A DNA stretch of 26,648 nucleotides from a virus (IMGVR_UViG_2531839149_000016); one strand, 5' to 3'. Shown: positions 7,458 through 17,044, numbered from the stretch's first letter. The notes: generated by a model not told the origin, from the sequence alone. A program made the numbers and translations.

Positions 7458-8285
7458 TTAAACTTGGGGAAGTATTTTTTTTGCAAAATCAATAGTTTCT
7501 TTGTGGTTGGATGCAGGTATATGATTTATTTTCTTAGCATCCATAGTTCTCTTTATGATGTCAATAACTTTGCTTTGGCCTGAGTTTGGTGATTCAGGAG
7601 TTTCAATTGTGAATAAAATGTCATCAAGTGAAAGCAGGTTTTCTTCTGCTGCTCGAGTTATTCTCATCACCCAAGTATCACTATGCTCCATCATTTTTCC
7701 TGGTTCAGCTTGAGTGAATGCCAGAGGTTTGATGGCACATTGGATCCTGTCATGCTTCTTGGCGACCAATGGCATTGAGAACTTTGCGAAATACCCATCA
7801 ATGGTTGCTTGTTTGAAGACGTTCTTCAATCCATCTATTCTATCGATACTTCGTTTTAGCTCTCTGGCTAGAACATCTTCACGGCGCTCTTTTGTGTAGT
7901 CAGAGTGGTTTACATATTTATTGTAAATGCGGGCCAGCTCTTCTTTTGGGTTTTCGCTGAGAATCACTCTCGTAGAACTGAACTGAAAAATTGATTCTTT
8001 TTTGTTTGTAAAATATCTGAAGAATTGTGCAAGTTGTTGATGTCCAACAATCTGGGTCGCATGCATTTTTGCGAACTGTAGTTCTCTTTGTATTGAGTCT
8101 TTTGCTACAGGGAAAATACAATCATCATGGAAAAAATTCTTTACACGAGAGTCATTTCGCTTTGTGAGCTGGAAATCAAAGTAATTTTCTTTTGGCGCGC
8201 ACAGAAGTACGCCTATGTTTGCGAATTCTTCAGTCTCCGCATAAGGCGCATAGCGAACGATGCTATATAGGCATGGAGTTGTCAT
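7458..8285 (-). CDS. DUF3037-family protein
   Basis: ORF starting MTTPCLYSIVRYAPYAETEEFANIGVLL…, the characteristic N-terminal signature of DUF3037 proteins as I recall it; its ATG overlaps the upstream gene's stop (ATGA), implying translational coupling; the track ORF extends to 8300 from a non-ATG start. Confidence 0.75.
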   Translation of the reverse strand: MTTPCLYSIVRYAPYAETEEFANIGVLLCAPKENYFDFQLTKRNDSRVKNFFHDDCIFPVAKDSIQRELQFAKMHATQIVGHQQLAQFFRYFTNKKESIFQFSSTRVILSENPKEELARIYNKYVNHSDYTKERREDVLARELKRSIDRIDGLKNVFKQATIDGYFAKFSMPLVAKKHDRIQCAIKPLAFTQAEPGKMMEHSDTWVMRITRAAEENLLSLDDILFTIETPESPNSGQSKVIDIIKRTMDAKKINHIPASNHKETIDFAKKILPQV

Positions 8286-9031
8286 TCTATTGCGCTCCAA
8301 AATTCATCACAATCACCTTTGTCTAGCGTAGTGCAGACAAAAGGTAAAAACTCCTCATCTACTATCCACTCTTCTGGAATTTCGTCAAGGATAGCAGGAA
8401 GCTTGTGTAAACTGTTAACGACCCTCTGGCGGTACTCTACGCGATCCACTAAATCATATTGCCATTTGCGGTTACCAGGGCCGTACACGTGCACAGAAAA
8501 ATCTTCAGGTCCAGCATTCTGATCAAATGAGAGATTATGGTCAATCAGATAATACTTATCGTTACTGATGTCATAAAGGATGTTAACGTTTCCACCTTTG
8601 TCAGTAAGCGTTCTGTCTGCATTTAATATCCATTTATCAAAAACATAGATTAATTTTTGCTGTTCGACTGGGATGATCGTTTCGTTTCTTGACTGCGTAA
8701 ACGTTAACGCTATTGCACCGTCAATGAACAATGAAGCAAAGGCATATCCTGTACAAATTTGTTGCTGCAGATCAGGTGAGTACTCTATAAGTTCCTCTGG
8801 CACAAATACGATTTTAAAGTCAGGTAAAGGAAGGCCGATATCATTAGCCAAACACGCCGAAATGAACTCAGCTAAGAGATTTTTCGGGGGCATTGATGGT
8901 TTTGACTTCAAAACATACAACTGCCCATCATCACATTTGCAAAGAAATGGCTGAGTGGAACCTTCATTGATGCGACGTATTACTTCAACGACATTAGGTA
9001 TTGCACTATTGCTGCTCGCTACGCACTCCAT
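8282..9031 (-). CDS. Small HipA-like / protein-kinase-like-fold protein (putative Ser/Thr kinase)
   Basis: About 250 aa; kinase-like motifs readable in the translation: beta3-Lys (YVLKSK), catalytic-loop-like ILNADRTLTDKGGNVNIL (D…N), and a DFG-like LIDHNLSF; AAGGG RBS 6 nt upstream of the ATG at 9031. Confidence 0.65.
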   Translation of the reverse strand: MECVASSNSAIPNVVEVIRRINEGSTQPFLCKCDDGQLYVLKSKPSMPPKNLLAEFISACLANDIGLPLPDFKIVFVPEELIEYSPDLQQQICTGYAFASLFIDGAIALTFTQSRNETIIPVEQQKLIYVFDKWILNADRTLTDKGGNVNILYDISNDKYYLIDHNLSFDQNAGPEDFSVHVYGPGNRKWQYDLVDRVEYRQRVVNSLHKLPAILDEIPEEWIVDEEFLPFVCTTLDKGDCDEFWSAIE

Positions 9032-9153
9032 CACTAACCCTTATGTGATTCAAGTCTTCCATCTCATTACTCCGCATCTCAAAGAGCGGTTTAACACTGC
9101 GTGTTTAAAGAAAAACAACAGGCCTATTGCTGTAACTGTTTTTTAGCCTCACT

Positions 9154-9843
9154 TTAACCATGCTTCCTATATGTCTGCGGCATGCTCCCAATAACCTTAC
9201 CGAAGATGAACACCCGGTTCATCTCGTCTTTCTCGATCGGGTCCCACGGTGAGTAGCTTTTGTTATCAGAGATGACCAGCAGCTTATCCTTCATCATTTG
9301 CAGGCGCTTTACATGGGCTGTGTCGTCGTACAGAAACGCATAGATACCATCACCGTCGAAAGATTTAACTGTGATATCAACGAACAGCAGATCACCTGGT
9401 TCGATCGTTCCTGACATGCTGTCACCACGCACGTTAATGATGCGGATATTTTCCGCCTTCCTACCATCGAACATGTGACGAGCATCGTCAAACGAGTACT
9501 CAACCGAGCGTAGAACTTCTACAAACTCACGGTTGATGACTCCCGGCCCAGCACTGACTTCTATATCAAGAACGTCAATCTTGAAGTATTTGGAATGGCT
9601 GACAGTTGATTGTATTGGTTGCACTGTACTGTCTGACATATTTCCAACGCCAGAAGATAACCATTCTGCGCGCACACCCAAAGCGTTCGCGATCTCCACG
9701 ATTTTAGTTGTTTGATTAGCTTTCCCTGTTTCGATTTTCTGAATAGCAGCTTGGCTAACCCCGACCAAATCCCCAAGCGCCTTTTGTGTAAGGCCTCGCG
9801 CTAATCTGGCTTCTTTAAGTCTTTCTGAGAGTGTTGTTTTCAT
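9154..9843 (-). CDS. cI: CI-like prophage repressor (N-terminal XRE HTH + C-terminal S24 LexA-like autopeptidase domain)
   Basis: 229 aa from MKTTLSERLKEARLARGLTQKALGDLVGVSQAAIQKIETGK…; C-terminal GDSM…K motif typical of S24 self-cleaving repressors; divergent from cro. Confidence 0.9.
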   Translation of the reverse strand: MKTTLSERLKEARLARGLTQKALGDLVGVSQAAIQKIETGKANQTTKIVEIANALGVRAEWLSSGVGNMSDSTVQPIQSTVSHSKYFKIDVLDIEVSAGPGVINREFVEVLRSVEYSFDDARHMFDGRKAENIRIINVRGDSMSGTIEPGDLLFVDITVKSFDGDGIYAFLYDDTAHVKRLQMMKDKLLVISDNKSYSPWDPIEKDEMNRVFIFGKVIGSMPQTYRKHG

Positions 9844-9947
9844 AGTCCAAATGTACAACCAAGGTTTTATTCCATCAAACGAAAATGGTTGTTGACTAAA
9901 AACAACCATAGTTTTAATCTTGATTCAAATTAACCACGGAGGTTGTT
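9844..9947. promoter_or_regulatory. oR / pR / pRM divergent promoter-operator region
   Basis: pR candidate: -35 TTGACT, 17-bp spacer, -10 TAATCT, then GGAGG and the cro ATG; palindrome ATGGTTGTTGACTAAAAACAACCAT overlaps the -35; on the opposite strand TTGATG-17-TACATT lies just upstream of the cI ATG (near-leaderless, as for lambda pRM). Confidence 0.6.
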
Positions 9948-12522: not shown

Positions 12523-12812
12523 CGGGAAAAGAAGCAATTATTCATTACCTGGGGACGCATAAGAGCTTCTGTGCGCAGGACGTTGCTGCGGTAACAGGCG
12601 CAACAGTAACCAGCATAAACCAGGCTGCGGCTAAAATGGCGCGGACAGGAATCTTAGTTATTGATGGTAAGGTCTGGCGAACGGTGTATTACCGGTTCGC
12701 TACCAGGGAAGAACGGGAAGGAAAGGTGAGCACGAATCTGATTTTCAAGGAGTGTCGCCAGAGTGCCGCGATGAAGCGGGTGTTGGCATTTTATCGCGGC
12801 AATTTTCAATAG
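12519..12812 (+). CDS. ren: Lambda Ren
   Basis: 97-aa ORF MTGKEAIIHYLGTH… matching lambda Ren; ATGA overlap with P. Confidence 0.9.
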   Translation: MTGKEAIIHYLGTHKSFCAQDVAAVTGATVTSINQAAAKMARTGILVIDGKVWRTVYYRFATREEREGKVSTNLIFKECRQSAAMKRVLAFYRGNFQ

Positions 12813-12848
12813 ACTATGTACATAAAAATATCATTTTTTAATACATGT

Positions 12849-13040
12849 CTAATTATTGGACGAAATTGGTTTTTGCTTTGGTTTAGTTAGCCTAGCAATC
12901 AAGCCAGAGGCAATAATGATGATCCAAGCAATTTGATGCAATGCTACTCCAATATAAGAACCTTTATAGATAATAAAGGCATAGATCGCTAGAAACGAAA
13001 TAAATATCCATAACGAAAGTTGATAAATTTTGGCGCGCAT
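12849..13040 (-). CDS. Possible small 2-TM membrane protein (63 aa)
   Basis: Hydrophobic ORF in AT-rich DNA; no clear RBS; speculative. Confidence 0.3.
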   Translation of the reverse strand: MRAKIYQLSLWIFISFLAIYAFIIYKGSYIGVALHQIAWIIIIASGLIARLTKPKQKPISSNN

Positions 13041-13296
13041 ATTTAATCCAATCAATCAGAAAGACGAGTAATCATAGAGGTACTATCACCCGGGTAACTA
13101 TTGCTATTATGAACGGATAGGATAGAGGCTTCAATAACATATGCATCAAGTATGATGGAATATGTAGATGAAAATGACTTGTGTCAAATTTGTGGAAATG
13201 AGTACCATGTTTCTCTGAAATTGATGTCGTTAATGGCTAGTGATAGTGAACTTTTTTACTTTATAATTCCTTTGGTTATAACAATAAGGTAAATTT

Positions 13297-13857
13297 ATGA
13301 AGAAGATAATATTATTAGCCATGATTATTGGTTCTTTAACAGGTTGCGCTAGTGTGCCACCATTGAATTTTTCAACACCTAACGTGGGAGTTAGCCAGAA
13401 AAAAATAGATGCTGAAATTAAGTCATTAACGGTATCACTTGCTCGTCCAGATGAGCAGAAAGGGGATATCACTGCTGGTATGGAGGCTATAACTCCAATT
13501 TGGCGTGAATCTTTGCAGGAAGCACTCGACCGAATGACTATTTTTCGTGATAGTTCACCAAATACGGTTAGCTTAAATGTTAAAGTGTTGGCTCTTGACG
13601 TTCCTGCTTTTGGTGTTTCAATGACAACTAAAGCAATTGCAAGGTATGAAATAATCAACCGTGCGAATGGTGATATTATATATACGCAGGATATTGAGTC
13701 TACCGGTACTGTTCCAGCCAGTTACGCATTCTACGGTATTGTTCGAGCACGCGAATCTGTTAATCGCGCGGTGCAAAACAACATAACGCAGTTCTTGCAA
13801 GCATTAGAAAGTGTTGATCTTTCTCGTCCAATGTTTCCTGTTAGGGTAGCTAAATGA
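13297..13857 (+). CDS. Hypothetical lipoprotein
   Basis: Signal peptide with lipobox (MKKIILLAMIIGSLTGC); 186 aa; stop overlaps the start of the next lipoprotein gene (ATGA). Confidence 0.7.
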   Translation: MKKIILLAMIIGSLTGCASVPPLNFSTPNVGVSQKKIDAEIKSLTVSLARPDEQKGDITAGMEAITPIWRESLQEALDRMTIFRDSSPNTVSLNVKVLALDVPAFGVSMTTKAIARYEIINRANGDIIYTQDIESTGTVPASYAFYGIVRARESVNRAVQNNITQFLQALESVDLSRPMFPVRVAK

Positions 13858-14306
13858 AGCGATTATTCGTAATTGCTCCACTCTTAGTGTTGGTTGGATG
13901 CGCACAAAATATATCGCCAAATAGTTATTCTGTTGGCTCTGTGGGCATGGTTAATCGAACTATCGCTGGTACAGTTATTAGTGCCAGGGGGGTTGATATC
14001 AGTGGGACTTCCGCGTTAGGCGGGACTGCTGGGGCTGCCGTGGGGGCAACCGCTGGTTCTGCGCTTGGTGGGGGAGTTCGTTCTAATATCGTTGGTGCCG
14101 TTGGTGGTGCAGTCATTGGTGGTATTGCCGGGGCAGCAATCGAATCTTCAGCAACAAAACAAACAGGCATGGAATATGTTGTCGAAACTGAGAATGGGAA
14201 TTTAATGACCATTGTTCAAGGCAAAGATCCGTTATTTACTCAAGGAAGTAAGGTCCTTGTTTTATACGGAAACCCTTCTCGCATAATAACAGACCCGCGT
14301 CACTAA
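13854..14306 (+). CDS. Glycine-zipper lipoprotein (SlyB/Pcp-like, 17-kDa-antigen-type)
   Basis: Lipobox (LLVLVGC) followed by a Gly/Ala-rich segment (GGTAGAAVGATAGSALGGG…GAVGGAVIGGIAGAAI) typical of glycine-zipper outer-membrane lipoproteins. Confidence 0.7.
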   Translation: MKRLFVIAPLLVLVGCAQNISPNSYSVGSVGMVNRTIAGTVISARGVDISGTSALGGTAGAAVGATAGSALGGGVRSNIVGAVGGAVIGGIAGAAIESSATKQTGMEYVVETENGNLMTIVQGKDPLFTQGSKVLVLYGNPSRIITDPRH

Positions 14307-14496
14307 CATACCTTTTGATTTTGTAAAATCAATTCGTAATAATAAAGTCATCGGAGCTTGAACAACTCCGGTGACTTCTGCGCTAAACGGGGACGTTTAT
14401 GCGCACATACAATCCAAACTCTCTTCTCCCTTCACAGATGCAGAAATGCACCTGCGATTTTTTGCATCCTGCGTTTGACCTCTGCGGAGGTGAAGC

Positions 14497-16519: not shown

Positions 16520-17044
16520 TTATTGTTTAACCCATAATAATTCATTGACATTGAATCCCAACTTTTGAGCGGTTCGCACATAGTCTGCTTTTACTTTATC
16601 TGGAATAGTTGGGGTCCTTGCCAGAATCCATAGGTATTCTCTGTTCGGACCACTGACAAGAGCATACTTATACTCATCATCCAGTTTGATTACATTATAG
16701 CCACCATAGAAGGGGCCAAAAAACGAAACCTTCAATGCTGCAGTTTTAGTATCTCCAGTAAAGTATGCTTTACCTTCGCTCTCGCTCCATTTATTTTTCG
16801 TTGGATCGTATCCACGGTTAAGTACACGAATCCCTCCGTCGTTCCGTTTTCCATAAGTAGCGCTGACCTGTTCCAGACCACGTTCGAACCGGTTCTCGAG
16901 GCGAGCTATTTCATACCATTTTCCGAGGTAGCGGTTGGCGTCAAAATTTGTAATCGGCTGCACACCTTTAGGTGGTGTCGGGGCCTTACATGCTATAAGA
17001 GTGAAAGAGAGTGCAATGCCAGTCAACACAGGCCATAACTTCAT
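16520..17044 (-). CDS. Blc-like outer-membrane lipocalin (lipoprotein)
   Basis: 174-aa ORF with lipobox (LIAC) and strong resemblance to E. coli Blc (…NFDANRYLGKWYEIARLENRFERGLEQVSATY…FFGPFYGGYNVI…EYLWILARTPT…), but clearly divergent from the chromosomal blc. Confidence 0.85.
   Translation of the reverse strand: MKLWPVLTGIALSFTLIACKAPTPPKGVQPITNFDANRYLGKWYEIARLENRFERGLEQVSATYGKRNDGGIRVLNRGYDPTKNKWSESEGKAYFTGDTKTAALKVSFFGPFYGGYNVIKLDDEYKYALVSGPNREYLWILARTPTIPDKVKADYVRTAQKLGFNVNELLWVKQ

Follow-up and report, generated by a model that had tools for sequence, protein, structure and literature searches.

The 26,648-nucleotide stretch of viral DNA analyzed here (IMGVR_UViG_2531839149_000016, one strand, referred to as the window) represents a lambda-like E. 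coli prophage with two adjacent lipoprotein genes, A and B, inserted between lambda-type ren and phage-82/DLP12-type ybcN. By sequence comparison, B is a SlyB paralogue, and A belongs to an uncharacterized lipoprotein family with a predicted LptE-type fold. Together they form a self-contained, conserved module that is distributed Proteobacteria-wide and has been captured repeatedly by phages, and the description of this module is new. The interpretation favored here, at a probability of about 45%, takes the pair for a mobile outer-membrane module of the SlyB type, with A as the dedicated partner of B, carried as a moron that would alter the outer membrane of the lysogen.

Two coupled lipoprotein genes

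BLASTP aligns B with SlyB of Escherichia coli K-12 over the full length (33% identity, E = 7e-13), and B is much nearer to SlyB than to YfgH, the other zipper lipoprotein of E. coli (E = 0.009). The phmmer alignment with the SlyB structure in the Protein Data Bank (PDB; 7ojf) joins B residues 2-149 to SlyB residues 3-155 (E = 1.3e-14), and a profile of 38 B homologues gives E = 2.9e-15 against the same entry. The AlphaFold2 (AF2) model of B contains long helices at residues 55-71 and 75-101 with beta strands flanking them. Foldseek superposes the model on 7ojf_A with all 138 residues aligned (E = 1.4e-8, probability 1.00), and SlyB is its sole significant structural match in the PDB, the next match having E = 0.06. 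These results agree with the initial annotation, which had described the second protein as glycine-zipper and SlyB-like, and they identify B at the sequence level as a full-length SlyB homologue in a separate subfamily.

B resembles the PhoPQ-regulated SlyB of E. coli and Salmonella (7ojf/7ojg) in length, lipobox, N-terminal beta segment, zipper hairpin and C-terminal beta domain. It differs in belonging to its own subfamily, in being encoded almost always directly after gene A, and in its location on mobile elements, whereas no adjacent partner lipoprotein gene is annotated at slyB in E. coli K-12. The 38 aligned members of the B subfamily are 63-77% identical and share an invariant C-terminal LYG.P.R...DPR motif. 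Many B homologues are assigned to PF13488 in a precomputed table.

Both proteins begin with a lipoprotein signal peptide. The N-terminus of A is MKKIILLAMIIGSLTG followed by Cys, a canonical lipobox with Ala at the +2 position; that of B is MKRLFVIAPLLVLVG followed by Cys, with the lipobox LVG/C-A-Q, and again has Ala at +2 and no Asp. The lipobox Cys of A (C17) is invariant and G16 nearly so in 48 aligned homologues, and the corresponding Cys of B (C16) is invariant in 38. The initial description of the genes as a lipoprotein pair is supported. Under the established sorting rule, Ala after the lipidated Cys leads to the outer membrane and Asp is the signal for inner-membrane retention. Because both proteins have Ala and not Asp at +2, they are predicted to be directed to the outer membrane.

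Gene A encodes a member of an unnamed family. A word-indexed search found 512 homologues at 55-99% identity, and an exhaustive profile search found 975 cluster representatives. A has no Pfam or NCBIfam match at E ≤ 0.1, and neither the single sequence nor the profile retrieved anything useful from PDB sequences. A and B belong to phrog_12521 and phrog_13877, respectively, both of "unknown function". The AF2 model of A is confident (predicted local distance difference test score [pLDDT] 86, predicted template modeling score 0.79) and shows a beta-alpha-beta-beta-beta-alpha domain. Modeled in this way, A is a two-layer alpha/beta sandwich that superposes on members of the LptE-like superfamily. 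The structural matches are XCC0632 (DUF330; score 13.4), PelC (10.4), LptE (9.9), PqiC (9.5), CsgG (9.2) and TraT (7.1), at sequence identities of 8-15%. A fold search of viral structures (BFVD) returned poor matches only, with template modeling scores ≤0.37. The best-conserved parts of A include a flexible N-terminal linker (PPLNFSVPNVG) and the C-terminal tail (KPMFP), and their strong conservation suggests that both are binding motifs. Longer proteins that contain the A domain (P0247, P0250, P0297 and P0322) carry no informative fused Pfam domain.

Three assignments of the A family were considered. A homologues are often named "UDP-N-acetylglucosamine acyltransferase" in GenBank and UniRef. 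There is no acyltransferase match in Pfam or NCBIfam and the predicted fold gives no support; the name looks like an annotation error that has been propagated, since these lipoproteins have a predicted fold of the LptE type and no acyltransferase domain. In some genomes RefSeq places A in the YajG family. E. coli YajG scores 176.8 bits against PF03923 (Lipoprotein_16) and 372 bits against PRK11627, and A misses both hidden Markov models. The alignment of A with YajG is weakly positive (hhalign probability 75%, E = 2.4e-5, 120 columns including the signal peptide), and YajG is the nearest sequence relative of A among host proteins. Assignment of A to PqiC/DUF330, the auxiliary lipoprotein of mammalian cell entry (MCE) transporters, was rejected for want of a Pfam match and of a conserved MCE/Pqi neighbor in 71 loci.

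Conservation of the pair and its capture by phages

In the window, the stop codon of A overlaps the start codon of B (Table 1), as expected from the initial description of the genes as translationally coupled. Of 62 related loci that could be resolved, 51 retain an overlap of 4 or 1 nucleotides, and in none are the two codons more than 17 nucleotides apart, so the overlap is not due to chance. The spread of the pair was measured in one genome per species from 185,579 species. Gene A was found in 71 of these species, drawn from the gamma-, beta- and alpha-proteobacteria plus one metagenome-assembled Desulfobulbaceae genome, and a B homologue lay directly downstream on the same strand in about 65. 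Over three proteobacterial classes the pair retains 46-85% identity, and its carriers are for the most part environmental bacteria, such as Stenotrophomonas, Xanthomonas, Luteimonas, Comamonas and Azospirillum. The pairwise distance matrices of A and B correlate with r = 0.87, a value reached by none of 2000 Mantel permutations. Adjacency and translational coupling that persist across classes are standard evidence for joint action. Since both are conserved here, A and B probably act together and in fixed proportion.

The module does not extend beyond the two genes. Clustering of open reading frames (ORFs) in the 71 species loci recovered only A, B and their antisense shadows, and the 130 nearest neighbors span 120 different Pfam families. 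No Lpt, Pel, curli or MCE/Pqi gene neighbors A in these loci. A PADLOC scan of the nearest neighbors gave few defense matches, none of them systematic, and A, B and the small ORFs of the insert have no match among the PADLOC defense models. The context in most species genomes is ordinary, non-phage chromosome. The Oxalobacter copy of the pair is degraded. In Photorhabdus, translated repeats downstream of A resemble an array of clustered regularly interspaced short palindromic repeats (CRISPR).

Phages carry the pair at three unrelated sites. Gene A is present in 36 IMG/VR viral contigs, comprising 21 of the E. coli type and 15 that are diverged, and nearly all of these contigs have B after A. 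In lambda-like phages, the genes for the proteins most similar to E. coli A (87%, 77% and 73% identity) are situated between the tape-measure gene and gpM, a minor tail gene, and insertions of the pair at this position are seen in loci L117, L116 and L100. At L117, B is immediately followed by a strong terminator-like hairpin that lies within the tail operon (positions 9047-9066; AAACCCGC-TCCG-GCGGGTTT plus a T run). A high-GC phage has the pair between its large terminase and portal genes. With the ren/nin site of the window, these locations indicate that unrelated phages have captured the pair independently. Carriage at three unrelated sites is the behavior expected of a moron that is kept for its usefulness.

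The ends of the insert in the window were located by megablast against phage genomes. On the left, lambda-type P/ren homology stops at about position 12787, inside the end of ren (query position 588). On the right, phage-82/DLP12-type ybcN/ninE homology begins at 14310-14314 (query positions 2111-2115). The A-B pair lies within the discrete, AT-rich insert of about 1.5 kb between these points, and the GC content is about 32-42% over 12800-13800 versus 50-55% on either side. The insert shows two marks of a moron: it separates genes that are neighbors in related phages, and its base composition is deviant (GC 32-44% against 50-55%). The initial annotation had proposed both the AT-rich insert at the ren/ybcN junction and its moron character. 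The former agrees in its coordinates with the ends found here, and the latter gains from the relatives inserted in other phages, one of which has a terminator after B.

In E. coli, the 1.5-kb insert is present in 280 of 5,426 complete genomes at ≥99% identity. It is single-copy and chromosomal in every carrier, the ren-insert-ybcN junction is identical in all 280, and the reading frames of A and B are intact in all 280. One or both insert flanks occur in 3,738 E. coli genomes, these 280 included. The immunity regions differ among carriers, for example between strain 042 and phage PhiR30_1. PhiR30_1, which has its own GenBank phage record with E. coli C as host, is the sole record with the pair among 50,697 GenBank phage records. 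The identity of at least 99%, the one common junction and the differing immunity regions point to a single acquisition in E. coli, followed by spread with a lambdoid prophage.

Proposed function and rival explanations

According to Janssens et al. (2024), as cited in other papers, SlyB assembles under stress into rings around outer-membrane proteins and lipid. By homology, the glycine-zipper hairpin of B would insert in the membrane, and B would oligomerize into similar rings around outer-membrane proteins and lipid. Translational coupling would supply A in fixed proportion to B. A would sit in the same leaflet as the B ring and might serve as an adaptor, cap or cargo, possibly linking the ring to a conserved envelope component. 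Borne by a prophage, the module would alter the outer membrane of the lysogen. The most likely phenotype would be that the lysogen better tolerates agents that stress the outer membrane (chelators, detergents or bile, cationic peptides), and a second plausible effect would be reduced access of other phages to outer-membrane receptors.

The high conservation of the pair across classes speaks for a universal target and against a variable phage receptor. The size of this two-component module, its 46-85% identity over three classes and its mostly non-phage chromosomal location likewise argue for a general outer-membrane function rather than the blocking of one particular receptor. SlyB and YajG were both recovered with LptDE in a published pull-down, which is a hint to the mechanism and no test of it. 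A more specific form of the model has A and B in one hetero-oligomeric ring, in which B would be the SlyB-type cage and A an LptE-like adaptor; phages would use it as a general entry-exclusion device or outer-membrane armor that acts on a conserved envelope machine, such as LptDE or BamA, and not on a single receptor. Such a ring on a conserved machine would explain both the conservation across classes and the repeated capture by unrelated phages; it is a long shot in this detailed form.

Several observations weigh against the SlyB-type module with a dedicated partner. The glycine-zipper model PF05433 matches B residues 55-97 with E = 3e-4 and 21.1 bits, below the 24.2-bit cutoff, PF13488 scores 16.9 bits against a cutoff of 25, and the confidence of the B model is moderate (pLDDT 70). 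Gene A occurs without B in Photorhabdus (L052 and L055) and Budvicia (L057), and the B homologue at L065 is a 109-residue protein without the glycine zipper, so the A-B partnership is not absolute. Distant A-like genes on plasmids of Vibrio and Skermanella have no SlyB-like neighbor. Promoter-like sites are no commoner in the A region than in shuffled sequence. Literature searches with the protein accessions, PhiR30_1 and phage-borne SlyB-like proteins found no paper that mentions the pair.

The initial annotation had drawn a parallel with the receptor-blocking or serum-resistance lipoproteins of the Llp, Cor and Bor types, with surface remodeling as the outcome. Surface remodeling by the pair is possible, and the kinship to these types was not borne out: A and B match neither Bor nor any other Pfam family apart from the weak glycine-zipper models. 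The corresponding functional explanation is superinfection exclusion in the manner of Llp, Cor and Rtp45, in which the pair would bind the periplasmic face of the outer-membrane protein that serves this phage or a competitor as receptor and would prevent adsorption or DNA entry, both in the lysogen and on lysis debris. Llp of T5, Cor, Rtp45 and Bor resemble the pair in being phage-encoded outer-membrane lipoproteins, with relatives of the pair situated in the midst of tail genes. Exclusion genes are often located in the tail region where the closest A relatives are found, and the physical enclosure of outer-membrane proteins by SlyB-type rings would suit such a role. The known proteins are nevertheless small, single and directed at one receptor each, as with Llp and Rtp45 (about 6 kDa), whereas the pair consists of two proteins, is widespread in bacterial chromosomes and has no homology to Llp, Cor or Rtp45. 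Its PHROGs have no assigned function, its neighbors rarely match defense models and it matches none itself. Conservation over three classes, mostly outside prophages, is also hard to fit with one variable receptor, and receptor-specific exclusion is judged unlikely. Conversion to virulence or serum resistance in the manner of Bor or TraT, with an assembly that would benefit pathogenic lysogens by reducing complement killing or blocking DNA transfer between cells, is very unlikely: neither protein is recognized by the Pfam models of TraT or Bor, structural similarity to TraT is weak (Foldseek E = 0.06), and the carriers are mostly environmental bacteria, for which survival in serum is irrelevant.

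The pair could also be a mere passenger that has no relevant phenotype in E. coli and that, after one insertion event, was spread clonally by a successful prophage. The near-identity and single junction of the E. coli copies, the rarity of the pair among GenBank phage records and an A promoter known only as a candidate consensus match would all fit this explanation. It does not account for the intact frames in every E. coli carrier, the independent capture at three sites or the strong conservation of A and B across classes, and is given little credence.

TraT of IncF plasmids offers a comparison with the favored SlyB-type module. TraT is a surface-exclusion and serum-resistance lipoprotein in which an LptE-like core is fused to two transmembrane helices, and it forms a decameric ring. 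Like A and B together, it is an outer-membrane lipoprotein of mobile elements that combines an LptE-like core with a transmembrane helical hairpin; it is one polypeptide, whereas A and B would place the same parts on two chains. A and B have no match to the TraT model PF05818 at E ≤ 0.1, and because the structural matches are weak the parallel is an analogy only. Separately, the Pfam model of TraT has a match, below the cutoff (E = 2e-6), in the glycine zipper of YfgH, encoded by K-12 yfgH (L119, 3793-4311). This match suggests that the transmembrane helices of TraT and the zipper hairpins of SlyB and YfgH may be related.

The E. coli yfgH-yfgI operon was considered as an analogue of the pair. 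It too is a two-gene lipoprotein operon with a SlyB-like protein, and this protein has been implicated in outer-membrane stability. The operon was rejected as an analogue because A is unrelated to YfgI (DUF5384) and B is nearer to SlyB than to YfgH; its gene order is also reversed.

A SlyB paralogue with a co-translated partner lipoprotein bears on how SlyB-type rings are targeted and partnered. The module is small and portable, and the prophage in which it resides occurs in about 5% of the complete E. coli genomes, clinical isolates among them. If the pair strengthens the outer membrane or blocks phage entry, it would bear on lysogenic conversion, resistance to membrane-active drugs and phage therapy.

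Expression signals, small reading frames and other genes in the window

The features of the insert are collected in Table 1. A Shine-Dalgarno-like AAGG precedes A, and no clear terminator follows B within the window. The sequence past 14313 corresponds to a putative promoter and an inverted repeat annotated in phage 82. Among the enterobacterial copies, L116 and L008 share TGATTAAAATCA and GTTAGGATG upstream of A, and L100 and L010 share GATAGGATGT(T/A)ACCG. These motifs are common to phage-borne and chromosomal copies, which suggests that the cassette moves together with the region upstream of it; of these motifs, the E. coli copy retains GTGATAG only.

Table 1. Coordinates of features of the ren-ybcN insert, counted from the first nucleotide of the window.
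Feature	Position	Strand	Basis or remark
Inserted cassette (moron) between lambda-type ren and phage-82/DLP12-type ybcN	12788..14313		megablast and GC content
Orphan hydrophobic ORF S, 63 aa (68 aa from TTG at 13055)	12849..13040	-	two hydrophobic stretches
46-aa ORF	13152-13292		overlaps candidate promoter; no family match
Candidate promoter-like site, GTGATA-16-TATAAT	13240..13267	+	10/12 consensus matches; 30 nt upstream of A start
Gene A, predicted outer-membrane lipoprotein, 186 aa, unnamed family, predicted LptE/PqiC-type fold	13297..13857	+	
Predicted signal peptide and lipobox of A	13297..13347	+	Cys17 codon 13345-13347; read from sequence
Overlap of A stop and B start, ATGA (translational coupling)	13854..13857	+	
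Gene B, SlyB-family glycine-zipper lipoprotein, predicted outer-membrane, 150 aa	13854..14306	+	phmmer, BLASTP, Foldseek
Predicted signal peptide and lipobox of B	13854..13901	+	Cys16 codon 13899-13901; read from sequence
Predicted glycine-zipper helical hairpin of B, about residues 51-101	14004..14156	+	aligns with SlyB hairpin

A possible small membrane protein had been suggested alongside the lipoproteins. The corresponding frame, ORF S, exists and has the hydrophobic stretches; its standing as a gene did not hold up. A search of 5.8 billion proteins found homologues in E. coli copies only, at ≥86% identity, and ORF S is absent from all other loci that carry the A-B pair. It is annotated in phage PhiR30_1 and not in the RefSeq record of strain 042. 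Hydrophobic ORFs arise easily in AT-rich DNA. Given this, the restriction to E. coli copies without diverged homologues and the absence from the other loci, ORF S is probably not part of the A-B system and is unsupported as a gene.

Downstream of the Q antiterminator gene lies a third cargo gene for a lipoprotein (16520-17044, minus strand). It encodes a Blc-subfamily lipocalin with the lipobox LIA/C and scores 313.8 bits against NCBIfam NF007786 (cutoff 267). Three outer-membrane lipoproteins of the host thus have relatives in the prophage (SlyB, Blc and possibly YajG), and in a single published study each of these host proteins was found to co-purify with LptDE. Elsewhere in the window, a HipA_2-type kinase gene (8282-9034, minus strand) and a DUF3037 gene (7458-8300, minus strand) adjoin the gene for an S24/helix-turn-helix repressor (9154-9909, minus strand). 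These two genes occupy the position of lambda rexAB and may be a toxin or defense pair.

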